Of a DNA stretch of 29,533 nt, positions 4,143 through 29,533 are shown piece by piece. The position numbers and the translations under genes were made by a program. The stretch comes from a virus (lineage: Duplodnaviria > Caudoviricetes). The stretch's first letter is position 1. Each line of letters opens with the position of its first letter. Location: positions 1 to 29,533 of IMG/VR virus record IMGVR_UViG_3300032330_001915. The stretch is one strand, 5' to 3'. Under the pieces are notes generated by a model. It was not told where the DNA came from and made no database searches. It saw only the letters and a list, made by a program, of their open reading frames with translations.

Positions 4143-4169
4143 ACATTTGGCTGATAATTTGCAATATAA
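4142..4169 (+). promoter_or_regulatory. Putative phage late promoter, copy 1
   Basis: AACA-N13-TTGCAATATAA, 9 nt before ATG 4179; identical 11-mer found at four structural-gene starts. Confidence 0.7.
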
Positions 4170-5991: not shown

Positions 5992-7436
5992 TGGCTCAGA
6001 CACTCATCGCATCACCTCAATCATTCACGGCAGCGTACAACCCTGTCAAGTTCATTGTTGACTCAACGAATAAGTCAAAGGATGGATTTCGCTATATCTT
6101 CGACATCTATGAAGCTGGCACCTCCAACAAGATAGCGCAGTACAAACCACTACCAACCTTCGGCACTGGCTATGGCGAACAGGACCTCTCAAAGCTACTG
6201 CAAAACAAAGTAAGCTGGGACCTCGACACGAGCAACACAGGGAGCTATTCCGCACCGAATTCATACTATTTGTACGACGTGAAGATAGGCGAGGAGTACA
6301 CCTTCTTTGATTTGTACACATCGAGCTTGACCAATGCGAGCGGCAATGTGAGGATAAACATGACCAACTCATTTGCACCAGGTGACCAGCTTATCATCAC
6401 GCAAGATGATGGTGGAGTTGCCAACCCACAGCTCGAAGGACTGCACACTGTAATCAGTTCGATATCGACATCATTCGTGGTCAACGTAAACTGGTCCACG
6501 ATCACCAACGCTGCCATCGATGGCTCGGTGAGCTATGCTGACAAGCGAAAAACTGACACTCCTGGAATCATCGAGATTGATTCATACAAGGTATTCAACG
6601 GAGCCTTCAGATCGGAGGAATGGACATCTTATGATGGCACCGACTTCTTGCCTGTGAATGTAACTAAAAGATGGTTGACAAACCAACCTACGTCATTTCA
6701 GTGCACACTCGGTCAAGACCTATGGCTGAACCTATGGAAGCCCAGTTTCACTGGCCGCATCTATTTTCAGAATAGCAACGGAGCATCATTCTACAAGATA
6801 GCAGCCACATCGCCTCAGATTATGCAAGCGGGTGTCGGTCCAAACAACTACGGCTCATTGACCGGTACAGGTGACCTCATCGAAAACACCGTTGAATGGT
6901 ACGACGTATGGTTCAACAATGATGCGACAGGCACATCTCAAGACACGCTCAAGTACCGCATCCATCTCGACAGGCGTGCATCCATCAGCGAGCATGAGCT
7001 GTTGTTCCTGGACCGCCTTGGCTCTTACTCATCATTCTCCTTCCAGCTGCGTGCATACCAGCGAGGAGACGTGACTCGTGATATGTACAACAGAGATGTG
7101 GTCGGCTACGTCAACGCATCAGACGAGTGGACATACACAACAGAGGACTTCGGCTTCAACACATTCAACATCAACGTCATCAAGCGCATGGAGCTCAACA
7201 CCAACTGGATGACCCAAGAGATGGCGACATACTTCGAGGAGCTCATCACATCGCCTCAGGTCTTCATCAAGTCGGTGAGCTACACTTGTGGTGATGACTT
7301 GGTGCCATCGAGCAGCACATACCAACCTGTCATCGTGGAGACCAACTCATACGAGATGCTCAACCAACGAAATAAGAATCTGATGCGCCAATCAATCACC
7401 GTGCGCTTCGCAAACCAGGACAACATAAATGGTTAG
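5991..7436 (+). CDS. Tail/baseplate structural protein
   Basis: 481 aa in the late operon; C-terminal FLDRLGSYSSFSF...LNTNWM...EELITSPQV region typical of Bacteroidota siphovirus tail proteins. Confidence 0.65.
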   Translation: MAQTLIASPQSFTAAYNPVKFIVDSTNKSKDGFRYIFDIYEAGTSNKIAQYKPLPTFGTGYGEQDLSKLLQNKVSWDLDTSNTGSYSAPNSYYLYDVKIGEEYTFFDLYTSSLTNASGNVRINMTNSFAPGDQLIITQDDGGVANPQLEGLHTVISSISTSFVVNVNWSTITNAAIDGSVSYADKRKTDTPGIIEIDSYKVFNGAFRSEEWTSYDGTDFLPVNVTKRWLTNQPTSFQCTLGQDLWLNLWKPSFTGRIYFQNSNGASFYKIAATSPQIMQAGVGPNNYGSLTGTGDLIENTVEWYDVWFNNDATGTSQDTLKYRIHLDRRASISEHELLFLDRLGSYSSFSFQLRAYQRGDVTRDMYNRDVVGYVNASDEWTYTTEDFGFNTFNINVIKRMELNTNWMTQEMATYFEELITSPQVFIKSVSYTCGDDLVPSSSTYQPVIVETNSYEMLNQRNKNLMRQSITVRFANQDNING

Positions 7437-12629: not shown

Positions 12630-13055
12630 ATGGGAAGGTACAAAAACACCGGCGAATACAACTACAAATATCCTCTAAGGAGACGAGTCGCCAACACACT
12701 CAAGAAAGTAATCAAGGATGAAGCTCTCATCGACACAGGTACGTTGTATGATTCGGTTCGCATCAATGCAAAGGTGAGCACTGAGGGCAACATTCGCATC
12801 GAAATTCTTGCCGCATACTATTTTGGCTACCTCAATAACGGAACAGCCACCATTGTACCATTTCACCTGGTGAAGAAATTCAACCAAGCACTTGAGATGA
12901 ATGGATTGATAGCTGAAATGTATGGAATGTATGTGCAAAATTTGGCACAAAATTTCCCGATTCTTGAGCTCGGTGGATTATTGCGAAAAAAGCCAAAGGT
13001 CATCTATGATTTCAAGCCGTTATTTGGTGAATTCAACTACGCACTCGACTACTAA
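12630..13055 (+). CDS. Putative neck/tail-completion protein (HK97 gp10-like)
   Basis: IDTGTLYDS and YFGYLNNGT resemble the DTGxLxxS...YxxYxxxGT pattern. Confidence 0.6.
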   Translation: MGRYKNTGEYNYKYPLRRRVANTLKKVIKDEALIDTGTLYDSVRINAKVSTEGNIRIEILAAYYFGYLNNGTATIVPFHLVKKFNQALEMNGLIAEMYGMYVQNLAQNFPILELGGLLRKKPKVIYDFKPLFGEFNYALDY

Positions 13056-13789
13056 ATCTCGAGCTCTTTTCTCATCGCCAAGAAATTAAACACAAGCACC
13101 AGCTTCATGTTAATTACTTGGTCGTATTTGGTGATGTCACCGTTGCACATGGACCAGATTAGCTGCTCCCAACCCCATTTTTGAGATGATTTCTCACGCT
13201 CCGCTTCTTTCTTTTCATCCGGGTCAGTGATGTCATTGAGGTCTTCAGCGACTTGCTCGGTCATCAGGTTCTTGTGGCTCGTGATGAAGGTATCTCTGAA
13301 TTTGATATACTCGGTAAGAACTCCATAAACTTTGGTGATTGGTTGGTCCAGGAAATAGTGCACCCGACTTGATGTCTTGAACTTGGTTGACTCCCACTGT
13401 GCAACCACATTGTCCTCCACAAGTTCTGGTATGCGATACAGCAGAGCGCATATGTTGGGAAGATACTGAAGATAGTCATTGGTGAAATAGTACTCCAGGT
13501 CTATAAACTCACCGAGAGTGAGGTCAGTCATTGGCTTGAGATAGAACTTGCCTATCCTATCGGCATACAATTTGCTCGGCTCGGTGTAGAGCCACTGAAG
13601 GTCCTTGAAGATTTCAGCCACCTCTGCGATGTCGAGGTCATCGAAGTCTTCAGGTAATGAGTCTGTGAGTACGCAGAGGATGTCGATGTTGTGGTTGAAT
13701 ACACCATCCTCACCTTTCAGTTGTCGAAGCTCAATGAACTGCTCAAGACTGACTTGATTCCACCTGTTCGGCAGTGTTGGTCTGGGCAT
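13052..13789 (-). CDS. Hypothetical protein, possible tail assembly chaperone; paralogue of the upstream minus-strand gene
   Basis: 245 aa; LPNRWNQVSLEQF and LTLGEFIDLE motifs; C-terminal KWGWEQLI...DITKYDQV. Confidence 0.65.
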   Translation of the reverse strand: MPRPTLPNRWNQVSLEQFIELRQLKGEDGVFNHNIDILCVLTDSLPEDFDDLDIAEVAEIFKDLQWLYTEPSKLYADRIGKFYLKPMTDLTLGEFIDLEYYFTNDYLQYLPNICALLYRIPELVEDNVVAQWESTKFKTSSRVHYFLDQPITKVYGVLTEYIKFRDTFITSHKNLMTEQVAEDLNDITDPDEKKEAEREKSSQKWGWEQLIWSMCNGDITKYDQVINMKLVLVFNFLAMRKELEI

Positions 13790-14291
13790 ACTCAGCGATT
13801 TTCTCAGTCACAAATACAATGTAAGGCACACACAACTCAGCCTTCTGAGTGCGGAATAACTTGGCCTTGTGCTTGAGATGGGCATCGGTGAAGTGCTCAG
13901 TGTTCGACAGGTCAGTGCGTTTGAACATGATCGCCATGATGTCACTGATGTAGTTGTTTGGCTTGGTGTTCACAATCTTCTCGATGAGCTTGGTCTCCTT
14001 CACTGAGAGCTTGAGCTGCGCCTCATAGGTGTAGCCATCCACCTCGATGCTTGTGACTGTTTCACTTGGAGTGAATGAATTGAGGTTGAATTCCTTGATG
14101 AGCTCAACAAATTTGCTGAATGGGTAGTCATCCCATAGCTCCTCTTTTATTCCAAGATATTTGAACATCTCAACATATCTCTCGATGTTGTCGAAGTCTT
14201 GGTTGTTAAGGATTTGGCTGATTTTTTCGAACTGCTCAATGGTCAGCTCGCTCATTTTGTTAGGGATTTCCTGGTCGAATACTTGTATCAT
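13743..14291 (-). CDS. Hypothetical protein, possible tail assembly chaperone
   Basis: 182 aa; IPNKMSELTIEQF and LSVKETKLIE align with the downstream gene. Confidence 0.65.
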   Translation of the reverse strand: MIQVFDQEIPNKMSELTIEQFEKISQILNNQDFDNIERYVEMFKYLGIKEELWDDYPFSKFVELIKEFNLNSFTPSETVTSIEVDGYTYEAQLKLSVKETKLIEKIVNTKPNNYISDIMAIMFKRTDLSNTEHFTDAHLKHKAKLFRTQKAELCVPYIVFVTEKIAEYAQTNTAEQVESSQS

Positions 14292-25909: not shown

Positions 25910-26364
25910 CACGACAACATCGACAAATCATAAAAGACCTCCAGCTCAAACACAAAATGGAAAAGTATCCAACCATCCCACCGCACCTCATCGCCCTGGA
26001 CCAATGGAATGACAACAGTGCCAATGCACTGACCAAGTCAATCATCGCATTCCTTCAGTTCAGCGGATGCCAAGCTGAGCGAATCAATACGATGGGTGTG
26101 TATCGCAAGAAATACCGCACAGATGGAGTGGCAATCGGTGGGCAATGGACCAAGGGAACCGGAACACCAGGCTCGGCAGATATCTCCGCCACGATCAAGG
26201 GCCGCTCGGTCAAGATTGAGGTCAAATATGGAAAGGATAGGCAGTCAGATGCGCAGAAAGCATACCAGAAAGCCATTGAAGAGGCTGGTGGTGTGTATGT
26301 TATTGCCCGAGATTTTGAAGGATTTTTGCAATTTTATGAGCAATTTTGCGAATCAATCAAATAA
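25906..26364 (+). CDS. VRR-NUC-like PD-(D/E)xK nuclease / resolvase
   Basis: GSADI...KIEVK.GKDRQS..Q......E.AGG. Confidence 0.8.
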   Translation: MTRQHRQIIKDLQLKHKMEKYPTIPPHLIALDQWNDNSANALTKSIIAFLQFSGCQAERINTMGVYRKKYRTDGVAIGGQWTKGTGTPGSADISATIKGRSVKIEVKYGKDRQSDAQKAYQKAIEEAGGVYVIARDFEGFLQFYEQFCESIK

Positions 26365-26377
26365 AAGCGTATATTTA
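26345..26377 (+). promoter_or_regulatory. Bacteroidota-type promoter for the recombination module
   Basis: TTTG-N21-TATATTTA; the same TATATTTACA occurs at 23481 before the primase gene. Confidence 0.5.
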
Positions 26378-26396
26378 CAATTCAAAACAACATATT

Positions 26397-26930
26397 ATGA
26401 CTACAAAGAAAGCGGAGGCTACACTCGCAGAGCCAATGAACATTTGGCAAAAATTACACGCTGCCAAGCAGCAAATCGGAAAGGTTGCAAAGAATGCAAC
26501 GAATCCTCATTTCAAGAAGAGCTACGCTGATATCAATGCGCTGCTCACAACGGTGGAGCCAATCCTTCACGAGCATGGACTGCTTCTCTTGCAGCCAGTG
26601 GTTGGCAATGATGTGGTGACTCGTATCATCGACATCGATTCTGGTGATGTCATCGAGTCATTCATGAGCCTTCCAGTCATCACAGACCCACAAAAGGTGC
26701 TCGCTGCCGTCACTTACTTCCGTAGAGGTACATTGCAGTCACTGCTATCACTTCAAGCTGTGGATGATGATGGAAACACAGCCGCTCAAGGTGCAGCATC
26801 CAAGCCAACGATCACAGATGACCGCTTCAAAAAAGCACTCGAATCAATCGAAGCTGGCAAGTACACAGCAGAACAGTTGAATTCCAACTATGCACTCACT
26901 GAAGTACAACTCAAAGCTCTCGCACTATGA
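26397..26930 (+). CDS. erf: ERF-family single-strand annealing protein
   Basis: KNATNPHFKKSYAD and PQK...AVTYFRR.TL.SLL.L...DDDGN; start moved to MTTKK. Confidence 0.88.
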   Translation: MTTKKAEATLAEPMNIWQKLHAAKQQIGKVAKNATNPHFKKSYADINALLTTVEPILHEHGLLLLQPVVGNDVVTRIIDIDSGDVIESFMSLPVITDPQKVLAAVTYFRRGTLQSLLSLQAVDDDGNTAAQGAASKPTITDDRFKKALESIEAGKYTAEQLNSNYALTEVQLKALAL

Positions 26931-27544
26931 AATGGCATCCATCGCAAATCGGAAAGCTGATGACCAATGGCAGAGCCAAGGACAGCATCGGAGAAACAGC
27001 CAAGAGCTACATCAAGGAATGTGCGAAGCAAGACTTCTACAACTACACCACAGAACTCAACAACAAATACATCTGGAAGGGTAGAGAGCAAGAGCTGGAA
27101 TCAATCAACCTCATCAACTCGGTGAGATTCACACAGTATACCAAGAATGAAGTGACTATCGAGAATGAATATCTCATCGGAACTGCTGATATCATAATCG
27201 AGCAGCGAGTCATCGACGTCAAAACATCGTGGTCATTGGATACTTTTCCGGCACTGATGGAAGATGCTGTCAATCCACTCTATGAATGGCAGCTGCGTGC
27301 TTACATGATGCTCTATGACAAGCCATGTGCTGAGCTCATATACTGCATGGTCACAACCTGGGATGAATTCCTCAATGAATACGAGAATCTCCAGCTGCAC
27401 AGAGTGGACCACATCAATCCTGAGAAGCGAATCACAGCTCTCTGGTACGATAGAGATGAAGATATTGAGGCAAAGATGGTTGCTCGCCTTAAAGAAGCAT
27501 CCGATCTATATCACGAATATTATGAACAATTAAACAATAAGTAA
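26927..27544 (+). CDS. YqaJ/lambda-exonuclease-like PD-(D/E)xK nuclease
   Basis: G...E, GTAD, IDVK, YEWQL.AYM motifs; coupled to ERF. Confidence 0.82.
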   Translation: MKWHPSQIGKLMTNGRAKDSIGETAKSYIKECAKQDFYNYTTELNNKYIWKGREQELESINLINSVRFTQYTKNEVTIENEYLIGTADIIIEQRVIDVKTSWSLDTFPALMEDAVNPLYEWQLRAYMMLYDKPCAELIYCMVTTWDEFLNEYENLQLHRVDHINPEKRITALWYDRDEDIEAKMVARLKEASDLYHEYYEQLNNK

Positions 27545-27545
27545 A

Positions 27546-27869
27546 ATGGAAGAGCTAAAAGCAAAGGGCACCATTCACCACCTTGGTGAAGCCAGACAAG
27601 TGAGTGAGAAAATGAACATCAGAGAGTTCGTGCTCTCAATCGGTGACAAGTATCCGCAGTTGGTACAATTTCAAGCAGTCAATGAGCGAGTGAAGTTCCT
27701 TGATGGAGCCAAAGTCGGTCAAGAATGTGAGGTCAAGTTCGACCTTCGAGGCAGAGAGTACAATGGCAAGTATTATGTCAGCCTCAATGCTTGGGATATC
27801 CGCATCGCAACGACAGCAGCACCATCAAAACCAATCACAGATGAAATCGATGACGATTTACCTTTCTGA
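27546..27869 (+). CDS. Single-stranded DNA-binding protein (DUF3127-like)
   Basis: REFVL...KYPQ, V.F.LRGREY, AW and acidic DDDLPF tail. Confidence 0.85.
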   Translation: MEELKAKGTIHHLGEARQVSEKMNIREFVLSIGDKYPQLVQFQAVNERVKFLDGAKVGQECEVKFDLRGREYNGKYYVSLNAWDIRIATTAAPSKPITDEIDDDLPF

Positions 27870-28050: not shown

Positions 28051-28235
28051 AGTACTTCATCGCATACATAGGCACCAAGAATGACAACCTCGATAACTTG
28101 GTTGCAAGGGTGCATGACTTATTCAACATGATGCCAGGTGTCAACACTTGCATCGTGCTCACCATCTCTGATGAGGTACACATCTCTGAAGTGACTCCAG
28201 AGGAATTTTATGAACAATGGTCAAGCCTTAACTAA
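28047..28235 (+). CDS. Hypothetical protein
   Basis: 62 aa, coupled on both sides. Confidence 0.7.
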   Translation: MKYFIAYIGTKNDNLDNLVARVHDLFNMMPGVNTCIVLTISDEVHISEVTPEEFYEQWSSLN

Positions 28236-28450
28236 TGGAACAGCAAATACAAGACCCAATACTAATCAAGGTGCTTGGTAAGTATTATGAGCGCAGCCAG
28301 CTCGGAATCGAGAAATATGGGCGCACTTTAGATCGTGATGATTTGAGCCTCACCGATTGGCTGAACCACTTACAGGATGAATTGATGGATGCCACGCTCT
28401 ACATTGAGAAGCTGAAGCAAGATGTCAAAACGAATAATGATAAGTGGTAA
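28235..28450 (+). CDS. All-alpha NTP-pyrophosphohydrolase (MazG-like) small protein
   Basis: G..KYG.TL......WL.H.QDELMDA.LY motif. Confidence 0.55.
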   Translation: MEQQIQDPILIKVLGKYYERSQLGIEKYGRTLDRDDLSLTDWLNHLQDELMDATLYIEKLKQDVKTNNDKW

Positions 28451-28547
28451 AAAATGCCACATATGTAAACACGAAATGTAATAAGGGATAGGCGCAACAA
28501 CTCCTGTTTTCAATAGAACGCTGACGGCTCGGAAAGACGAGCAACAT

Positions 28548-28673
28548 AGTCAGGTGGCGGAATGGTAGACGCTATTATCTGAGACGCTGGGCGTGATTCT
28601 CGTTCGATTCGAGAAGTAGACTCTGGTGGGGGTAGGCGCAGCTCATTTACAGGTTCGAATCCTGTCCTGACTA
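28548..28673 (+). ncRNA. tRNA-like RNA (Leu-type D arm) with an expanded, non-canonical anticodon domain
   Basis: Acceptor AGTCAGG/CCTGACT plus discriminator A; D arm GCGGAATGGTAGACGC; T arm ACAGG-TTCGAAT-CCTGT; 76 nt between D and T arms. Confidence 0.8.
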
Positions 28674-28696
28674 CTAACCTTTAAAAAACAAGAAAA

Positions 28697-28891
28697 ATGA
28701 AAACAGCAGTAGAATGGTTAGTTGAGCAATTACCATTAATTCAACAAGAGGGATTAAGAGATATAATTGAACAAGCCAAAGAAATAGAGAAGGAGTATAT
28801 AATTAATGCACATTATCAAGGATATAGACCTTCTATTGGTACTACAGAAATATCAGAACATTACTACAACAAAACATTTAAATCAGAATAA
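28697..28891 (+). CDS. TAVEWL-family small protein (64 aa)
   Basis: MKTAVEWL...EQAKEIEKEYIINA...SEHYYNKTFKSE. Confidence 0.85.
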   Translation: MKTAVEWLVEQLPLIQQEGLRDIIEQAKEIEKEYIINAHYQGYRPSIGTTEISEHYYNKTFKSE

Positions 28892-28892
28892 G

Positions 28893-29033
28893 ATGGAAAA
28901 TAAATTAATAGAAAAAATGAAAGGCATGGTTCTCATTATAGTAATAGCAATATTGGGATTGGGTATTATAAATACATTTATATTATTACAGAGAATACAA
29001 GAATTAGAAAATAAAATAGAAGCGATTAAATAA
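28893..29033 (+). CDS. Single-TM micro-protein with coiled-coil tail (46 aa)
   Basis: MENKLIEKMKGMVLIIVIAILGLGIINTFILLQRIQELENKIEAIK; ATG is part of the linker. Confidence 0.75.
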   Translation: MENKLIEKMKGMVLIIVIAILGLGIINTFILLQRIQELENKIEAIK

Positions 29034-29040
29034 GAATAAT

Positions 29041-29172
29041 ATGACAGGTCTATTTTTATTCACATTCATTTTTATCATTGCTCATTTTTTTGAAAAGTCA
29101 GACCATGATAGAATGAAAGAAGCAGAAAAACTACAAGAAGCAGAAAAATACTATAACGAAACATTTAAATAA
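29041..29172 (+). CDS. Hydrophobic N-terminus micro-protein ending in the family C block (43 aa)
   Basis: Manual translation MTGLFLFTFIFIIAHFFEKSDHDRMKEAEKLQEAEKYYNETFK; linker on both sides. Confidence 0.7.
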   Translation: MTGLFLFTFIFIIAHFFEKSDHDRMKEAEKLQEAEKYYNETFK

Positions 29173-29179
29173 GAATAAG

Positions 29180-29425
29180 ATGAAAACAGAAAAACAATTA
29201 ACAGCAGTAGAATGGTTGTGTAATGAATGGCTTTATTTAGACCAACAATTTGATATGTGCCTAATAGATAGAAATATTTATTGGGATAAACTTCGACAAA
29301 TTCAAGAACAATCCAAAGAAATGGAGAAGGAGCAGATAATGAATGCTTTTGATGAATGCGGAATGTGGCAAGATAATTATTCAGACTCAGAACATTACTA
29401 CAACAAAACATTTAAATCAGAATAA
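29180..29425 (+). CDS. TAVEWL-family small protein (81 aa)
   Basis: LTAVEWL...EQSKEMEKEQIMNA...SEHYYNKTFKSE. Confidence 0.85.
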   Translation: MKTEKQLTAVEWLCNEWLYLDQQFDMCLIDRNIYWDKLRQIQEQSKEMEKEQIMNAFDECGMWQDNYSDSEHYYNKTFKSE

Positions 29426-29426
29426 G

Positions 29427-29533
29427 ATGCTACGTAAGTTAATAGAAAAATGGTCTTGTAAGCATAAGTGGGAAATACACAACACCACAAACATACGTGA
29501 TACCGAAATGCCAGATATACCAACAGCGGTAAG
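29427..29533 (+). CDS. 5' part of junction-spanning 52-aa CxH...CxxC protein (ends at 113)
   Basis: ATG in linker 29411-29429; frame continues through the terminal overlap. Confidence 0.8.
   Translation, partial: MLRKLIEKWSCKHKWEIHNTTNIRDTEMPDIPTAV
29473..29533. repeat. Terminal direct repeat identical to 1-61
   Basis: Exact 61-nt match. Confidence 0.95.

Follow-up and report, generated by a model that had tools for sequence, protein, structure and literature searches.

The window considered here, i.e., the whole stretch of 29,533 nucleotides that was analyzed, represents a complete circular phage record (~29.5 kb, with direct terminal repeats and a 61-nt overlap of its ends) harboring a slot in which micro-genes are strung together by short linkers. 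The content of this slot is likely varied by short-homology recombination at the linkers and at additional joints, and the linker likely doubles as a translation start. The idea of such a linker is already known; the noteworthy part is the nesting of joints within the genes along with the presence of RNA cassettes. To judge from the sequences compared, half-genes appear to be recombined at these joints into chimeric micro-proteins, which is new here; the joints within genes were overlooked in an earlier, sequence-only reading of the window.

The Phage and Its Putative Host

The genes recognized in the window with Pfam and PHROGs include those for TerL, portal, protease, primase, Erf, exonuclease, and SSB. 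Judged by TerL, the phage has no close cultured relative (the best match is 31–35%). The host is probably a member of Bacteroidota, likely a freshwater one and probably belonging to Flavobacteria, as suggested by the scarcity of SD-like starts (an SD-like word was found at 2 of 35 core gene starts), by the BT4734-like domain detected with Pfam in the primase, and by matches to Flavobacterium phage elemo, whose isolates account for 68 of the 72 DNA matches between the array and cultured phages. The Erf-family annealing protein, the exonuclease, and SSB are encoded at 26346–27869 on the + strand (Pfam ERF, 1.5e-16; PHROG exonuclease, 4.8e-51, and SSB, 1.2e-18), and this block is a candidate for the recombination machinery.

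Layout of the Array

The overlap of the ends and the direct terminal repeats imply that the array runs from 28680–29533 into 62–1044; all the elements described in this section lie on the + strand. The GC content of the array is 29.5% vs. 45.9% in the core, and the values initially reported for two sample stretches, 17/60 at 28921–28980 vs. 33/60 at 7021–7080, are both exact.

The slot opens with a conserved left head (28457–28482), present by definition with at most four mismatches in all 41 slots discussed below and, in a degenerate version, in 45 metagenome stretches. After two RNA elements (see below), a variant type 2 linker (28681–28699, recognized by pattern match) gives the ATG of g1 (28697–28891; 64 aa, with 209 unnamed homologues), a member of the TAVEW family with internal joints at 28703 and 28772. 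The next linker, of type 1 (28877–28895, read as FKSE and a stop), leads to g2 (28893–29033; 46 aa, with a hydrophobic stretch), which adjoins a g1-type 3′ half in another locus, L268, too. Between the type 1 linkers at 29025–29043 (read as IK and a stop) and 29164–29182 (FK and a stop) resides g3 (29041–29172; 43 aa), combining a hydrophobic N-terminal part with the TAVEW-family tail YYNETFK. It is followed by g4 (29180–29425; 81 aa, TAVEW family, joints at 29201 and 29309) and a further type 1 linker (29411–29429) read as FKSE and a stop. The circular join is spanned by g5 (29427–29533, then 62–113; 52 aa, with CxH..CxxC), and the type 1 linker at 109–127, read as NL and a stop, precedes g6 (125–205; 26 aa). 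The type 2 linkers at 186–204 and 401–419, both with an ATGA overlap, precede g7 (202–420; 72 aa, TAVEW family, joints at 220 and 289) and g8 (417–521; 34 aa), respectively, the latter beginning with a TAV joint (423) followed by a hydrophobic stretch. A type 2 linker lacking a start codon (502–520) forms the left border of the cassette of g9 (563–991; 142 aa, with a TAVEW start at 578), and a short type 2 linker (1028–1044) leads to g10 (1042–1200; 52 aa), the commonest last gene of the slot (cluster c0, 17 of 41 slots). The hairpin noticed previously near the array end is real (995–1030, z −3.5); it is a part of the g9 cassette, and outside the window it was found in L406 alone, again following g9.

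None of the array genes was matched in PHROGs (0 of 10 queries) or Pfam (0 of 9). The 106 cassette ORFs outside the TAVEW family gave two matches to a DUF above the cut-off and one weak family below it, and the ESM Atlas returned only viral clusters without names for the cargo. Past the third linker of L051, a much longer ORF was observed, so the cargo is not confined to micro-genes.

The Linker as a Conserved DNA Element

All ten linker sites proposed by the sequence-only reading were confirmed, the type 2 copies starting one base after the positions given there; the starts of the five type 1 copies are spaced by 148, 139, 247, and 170. No further linkers were found elsewhere in the window on either strand. 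A union pattern of both types gave 10 matches vs. 0.23 expected from shuffles of the whole window and 0.17 from shuffles of the AT-rich zone alone (at most 2 in 1000 shuffles), the pattern being built from these same ten copies, so that relatives offer a better test. In nine of the ten copies, all oriented along the + strand, the linker is followed by ATG. The exception to the claim that it usually gives the next ATG is the copy at 502, which ends in ATA; the ATG of g9 at 563 is located 43 nt past this copy and has no linker immediately upstream. The motif is not equally common before core genes: none of the 35 core starts was within two mismatches of the linker, the actual distance being 3–10 mismatches.

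The linker is asymmetric and unfolded (two linker regions at −0.6 and 0 kcal/mol), and no recurrent inverted repeat was found. Promoter-like sites in 28200–29533 numbered 2 vs. 5.8 expected, neither of them at a linker, and TAnnTTTG, the Bacteroidota −7 box, is absent from the + strand of the array.

The constraint on the linker acts on nucleotides, irrespective of the frame and not on the peptide, as had been argued before. In viral stretches, exact linkers are estimated at ~490 for type 1 and ~330 for type 2, and the stop of the upstream frame is found at diverse offsets: +1 (100 cases), −15 (40), and others for type 2; −4 (42), −14 (19), and −21 (12) for type 1. Translated and untranslated copies are equally exact: the type 2 14-mer was intact in 76 of 100 translated vs. 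50 of 61 untranslated copies and, in loci chosen by protein, in 13/17 vs. 14/18.

The linker consensus is A-rich and devoid of an SD. In the nine window linkers with ATG, adenine occupies positions −3, −6, and −12 in all cases and position −13 in eight, and it is A at these four positions that raises translation initiation in Flavobacterium johnsoniae (PMC6847099). This agreement makes the linker a likely Bacteroidota-type translation start. At the same time, the Kozak-like start, as it is described in the cited passages on F. johnsoniae, is, though equally devoid of an SD, a loose base preference, whereas the linker has 14 fixed letters.

One may suggest that the linker is solely a strong start or coupling signal (SAS-like, see below), and that the mosaics come from illegitimate recombination with selection at gene borders. 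This explanation, which we find unlikely, agrees with the pattern of adenines and with the presence of an exact type 2 linker ahead of an ordinary gene in a chromosome of Arenibacter nanhaiticus (L446, 2001–2021); in the 185,579-species genome set, the only other exact type 2 linker belongs to L447, a contig with phage-like features from a Flavobacteriia MAG. It is less compatible with the distance of the core starts from the linker and with the conservation of all 14 letters, beyond the adenines. It is also at odds with the ATG-less linker at 502, which still bounds a cassette, and with the linkers flanking tRNA-like RNAs.

Variation of the Slot among Relatives

The content of the array is not fixed among relatives, which agrees with variation of the slot by recombination. 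Retrieval with the left flanking protein yielded 80 partly redundant loci. In the 65 of them possessing both anchors, the slot gap was 9–1,608 bp (2,317 bp in the window), and 79 of the 80 had no linker upstream of the slot. In the pooled set of retrieved loci, 41 distinct slots, delimited by the head mark on one side and the right anchor on the other, represented about 26 organizations, a count depending on the calling of degenerate linkers, and ranged from one linker with no cassette to the nine units of the window. Comparison of relatives revealed the cassette indels bounded by linkers that the sequence-only reading had predicted. Thus, L022 features the head, a linker, and the last gene, and L250 the head, a linker, a cassette, a linker, and the same last gene, i.e., the empty and the filled states differ by a cassette and one linker. 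Ahead of the window's last gene, L314 adds one cassette and L217 adds three.

The one-linker and two-linker topology of the empty and filled sites would also suit a site-specific recombinase, encoded by the host or by a helper element, for which the linker is an att site. Other facts in line with this possibility include the tendency of like linkers to follow one another (in 11 mixed arrays, 17 switches of type vs. 24.7 expected) and the shortness of the bare linker for homologous pairing. Nevertheless, the involvement of such an enzyme seems very unlikely. No tyrosine or serine recombinase was found in the complete genome (PF00589 gave 0 matches with controls at 14/14, and there was none among 50 ORFs searched with Pfam), and the linker shows neither symmetry nor folding. 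Furthermore, the same 3′ half-gene can end in a type 1 or a type 2 linker, and runs of one type are expected from homologous exchange as well. Three distinct sequences serve as joints, which fits homology-driven exchange.

The Shared Pool of Cassettes

The sequence-only reading also anticipated near-identical cassettes in unrelated phages, and such cassettes are present in phages of very different size: linker-to-linker, they are 95–100% identical in phage contigs of ~29 kb, 67 kb, and 174 kb. In particular, a 28.9-kb contig (L029) and a 174-kb contig (L278) have 240 bp in common at 95.4%, linker-to-linker, and a 67-kb contig (L334) and L337 have 252 bp at 99.6%. The window block 501–1047, including the hairpin, is 92.8% identical to its counterpart in L406, with linkers at both ends and other neighbors. 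The flanks were compared for 57 pairs of blocks having 2.5 kb or more on each side: 26 lacked a related flank protein, 11 displayed flank protein identity <50%, 15 fell within 50–80%, and 5 were above. Short flanks do not prove that the phages are unrelated, but contig sizes differ widely.

The linker-started ORFs (n = 524, median 64 aa) represent 213 families, of which 152 have a single member. This diversity conflicts with the notion that the array is a gene accordion, i.e., one small-gene family duplicated in tandem, whose conserved ends, and not joints, make up the repeats, a notion drawing on four full TAVEW members in the window and two more genes with the family end, on the largest family comprising 122 of the 524 ORFs, and on a 115-bp exact duplicate in L095. 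Since, in addition, many different frames are used across the linker and some copies remain untranslated, unrelated genes are traded linker-to-linker, and non-family cassettes possess exact linkers, we deem the accordion very improbable. The TAVEW family may represent the origin of the linker.

The mosaics could also be viewed as assembly chimeras formed where contigs of different phages share repeats, the data all being metagenome assemblies. In run X1, which contains 93% of the sampled window words and may be the source of the window (runs with small shares of these words were left out of any habitat assignment), the array is split at the joints into short contigs with a depth of 42–94 vs. 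44–46 for the core; one X1 contig with g2 differs from the window at 4 positions, and some window junctions are unbridged among the X1 contigs listed. On the other hand, exact shared stretches are mostly <30 nt, and the words usually employed in assembly are longer than that. Moreover, X1 contigs cross the linkers at 29025, 29164, 502, and 1028 unchanged (one of them covers 29010–29194, comprising both g3 linkers, with zero differences), the exchanged blocks are often 92–99% and not 100% identical, and the same organization was found in several contigs. Overall, chimeric assembly is an extremely improbable source of the mosaics; the exact succession of cassettes in the window may to some degree reflect the path taken during assembly. 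Joints considered as circles or deletions were rejected, their sides being <30 letters and probably originating from other phages, and no excised circle was seen among the contigs.

Ends of the Shared Blocks

Breakpoints are not random relative to linkers. In 249 de-duplicated loci, blocks of at least 80 bp shared at 92% identity or more had 344 of their 499 ends at linkers (113 expected), 54 at the QAKEMEKEQ joint (26.5 expected), 34 at the TAVEW joint (17.6 expected), and 67 elsewhere (342 expected), these ends being non-independent events and a crossover having no assignable position within an identical linker. When queries were chosen by protein and the end linkers were dropped, 72 ends were left: 36 at linkers (8.3 expected), 20 at QAKEMEKEQ (4.8), 6 at TAVEW (1.5), and 10 elsewhere (57.4). 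Left block ends pile up at the 5′ edge of the linker, and right ends at the next ATG.

As a control, ends were counted at 87 of 171 internal linker starts, 10 of 42 linker-less gene starts, and 42 of 592 mid-cassette positions. Thus, plain gene borders are enriched about threefold over mid-cassette positions, and the linker about doubles this enrichment. The enrichment of borders lacking a linker speaks for the start-signal explanation and implies that whole-gene selection accounts for part of the pattern, but that explanation does not cover the frozen codons (see below) and the block ends at intragenic joints. Whether conserved boundary sequences give rise to mosaic junctions, or whether these result from random joining followed by selection, is an old question (PMC3029335); with linkers, plain gene borders, and intragenic joints in one dataset, both junction models become countable apart.

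Probable Half-Gene Exchange in the TAVEW Family

The commonest gene family, TAVEW, is unnamed in Pfam, PHROGs, and the ESM Atlas. It is hallmarked by two codon-frozen internal joints, TAVEW and QAKEMEKEQ. Among 104 ORFs of the family, picked by a protein motif, the joint codons were ACA in 102/104, GCA in 103/104, GTA in 102/104, GCC in 80/98, GAG in 78/81, and CAG in 83/104. With the background usage of 0.49 for ACA, 0.11 for GCC, and 0.17 for CAG, the frozen GCC and CAG run against preference, and codon choice is mixed at the conserved residues next to the joints (Leu, TTA 45/TTG 41; Gly, 18/11/7/5).

The accumulation of block ends at these frozen joints points to half-gene chimeras as well. 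Thus, L268, belonging to the same clade as the window, combines the 5′ half of g7 with the 3′ half of g1, followed by g2. The 3′ half of g1 is found behind other 5′ halves in L268, L275, L426, L431, and L439; the 5′ half of g4 is 95.7% identical in L262, where the 3′ half differs; the 5′ half of g7 occurs in L060, L268, and L333, and its 3′ half in L276 and L374, with other partners each time. The strict count of two-segment chimeras is modest: more than one partner was found for 7/40 of the 5′ and 3/46 of the 3′ segments (50 genes). Half-gene swaps would show that the joints create new proteins, beyond moving old ones, and may explain how aquatic phages come to have so many small orphan proteins.

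A cultured phage, Flavobacterium phage vB_FspP_elemoA_7-9A (MT497017; L448, 8001–8430), whose annotation includes an ERF protein and an exonuclease, also has a TAVEW gene in which both joints are present, along with three variant-linker copies. MT497017 lacks the type 2 linker, and in the three cultured elemo regions compared, the annotated genes around the TAVEW gene occupy the same coordinates; hence, the elemo isolates offer no breakpoint test. What a cultured Flavobacterium phage with the TAVEW family and a related linker does provide is an entry to bench work.

Structured RNAs Heading the Slot

The tRNA-like RNA described earlier as heading the array was confirmed (28548–28673; Rfam tRNA, 37.3 bits). 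It has constant acceptor, D, and T arms and a variable middle, and it does not conform to a canonical tRNA gene, which has an anticodon stem-loop and a CCA end: ARAGORN called 0 genes, 66 nt of the middle are unmatched, and there is no CCA. Thirteen versions of 65–144 nt were found, their middles all different, two of them with type 1 linkers on both sides. The members of this RNA family come from the window, L145, L180, L051, L287, L308, L322, L340, L341, and L419, with more in sequencing runs. The constant ends of these RNAs are themselves possible exchange joints.

A small structured non-coding element at 28484–28545 represents an alternative slot head (10 distinct contexts, in several of them with a linker immediately 3′; fold z −1.8; no Rfam family). 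At least two other structured non-coding alternative heads were noticed (L014, L435, L418, L137), one with a terminator-like hairpin end. The Rfam search of the non-coding heads returned nothing beyond tRNA, and that in 2 of 10 loci. In L415 (1400–2300), a slot head of ~100 bp is duplicated around three cassettes, which may be the pattern left by a circle integrating via the head, or an assembly error.

A Possible Mechanism of Exchange

Judging by the gene content, the exchange is probably carried out by the phage's own Erf together with the exonuclease. Every cassette ends in a linker that provides a stop as well as a start for the gene that follows, so recombination between any two linkers would result in an expressible junction. 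Crossovers in the TAVEW or QAKEMEKEQ joints would preserve the frame, giving rise to chimeric proteins, and repeated exchange would keep the joints uniform. The cargo would then be dispensable host-interaction proteins sampled in co-infection, a function suggested by dispensability.

In phage D3, an Erf/Exo pair recombines DNAs that have diverged, and the same source quotes a pairing minimum of 23–27 nt for Red-beta (PMC3945230). The exact homology of random linker pairs has a median of 19–20 nt, with 12–15% of pairs reaching 25 nt. The bare linker is thus just under the pairing minimum, so exchange at a bare linker would be rare; family tails lengthen the homology, e.g., in the 64-nt repeat at 28853/29387. 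Overall, the notion of a plug-in array with recombination joints, put forward by the sequence-only reading, is supported by the varied slots, the block ends, and the sharing of cassettes, whereas the recombining enzyme and the role in translation are ones that we infer. It is a tentative and somewhat doubtful suggestion that unrelated Flavobacteria phages share an integrase-free library of linker-plugged micro-genes and tRNA-like RNAs, together with a small helical protein family diversified by swaps of its two variable halves at the codon-frozen joints, the resulting large set of chimeric proteins being selected against changing host targets.

Relation to Known Systems

The system is not the undescribed one for which it had been considered the best candidate, since its kind is already described for PeSLs and boundary sequences. 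In the way it works, the array resembles the shuffling at T4 PeSLs or boundary sequences, although it belongs neither to PeSLs nor to integrons. Integrons are tandem, AT-rich, variable arrays of mostly single orphan genes, operated by the tyrosine recombinase IntI at attC sites, whose inverted arms fold as a single-stranded hairpin. The array is likewise tandem, AT-rich, variable, and composed of single-gene cassettes; here, however, there is no IntI and no attC-like hairpin, and the joint is located within the stop/start region. Consequently, its earlier description as integron-like without an integrase is apt with regard to the layout only.

The PeSL cassettes of T4-type phages comprise a repeated expression signal before orphan genes, with no integrase, and their mini-circles have been shown (Arbiol et al. 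2010, PMC2839356; Comeau et al. 2014, PMC4122927). Two copies of the repeat surround a gene in one phage with a single copy in a relative, homologous exchange being proposed; gene indels bounded by a repeat were found among the relatives of the window, too. The PeSL repeat, according to these accounts, is a ~100-bp promoter plus stem-loop, whereas the joint here is a ~19-nt unstructured stop/start, often within coding sequence; neither a sigma-70-like early promoter nor a terminator stem-loop was found in the linker. Compared with PeSLs as they are portrayed there, the array also has intragenic joints and a pool spanning phages of different size.

The original cases of boundary sequences come from lambdoid phages. 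These short conserved sites at module borders were proposed to serve homologous recombination by general enzymes (PMC3029335). The array likewise has a short conserved sequence at module junctions. The phage encodes Erf and an exonuclease, which may carry out general recombination at the linkers, their homology being mostly 19–20 nt. In comparison with that account, the sites here mark almost all gene borders of a single slot, on the single-gene and half-gene scale, and block ends were counted.

The SAS of cluster K mycobacteriophages are asymmetric short repeats in one orientation, directly before the ATG of non-structural genes; they are 13-bp, SD-like, spread over half the genome, and proposed to function in initiation (PMC3203893). 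The placement of the linker is alike (+ strand in 10/10, ATG next in 9/10), but it lacks an SD, does not match the SD-like consensus of cluster K, and marks exchange points; the passages on SAS propose no recombination role (PMC3203893). Literature on the linker, the TAVEW family, or half-gene swaps was not found in a search of mainly open-access papers.

Other Features of the Window

Inside the structural module, two genes at 13052–14291 are encoded on the opposite (−) strand and belong to no Pfam family. The repeat TTGCAATATAA occurs four times on the + strand, at 4159, 12616, 14323, and 16924, each time just upstream of a gene of the structural module, with no copy on the − strand. This repeat is a candidate late promoter.
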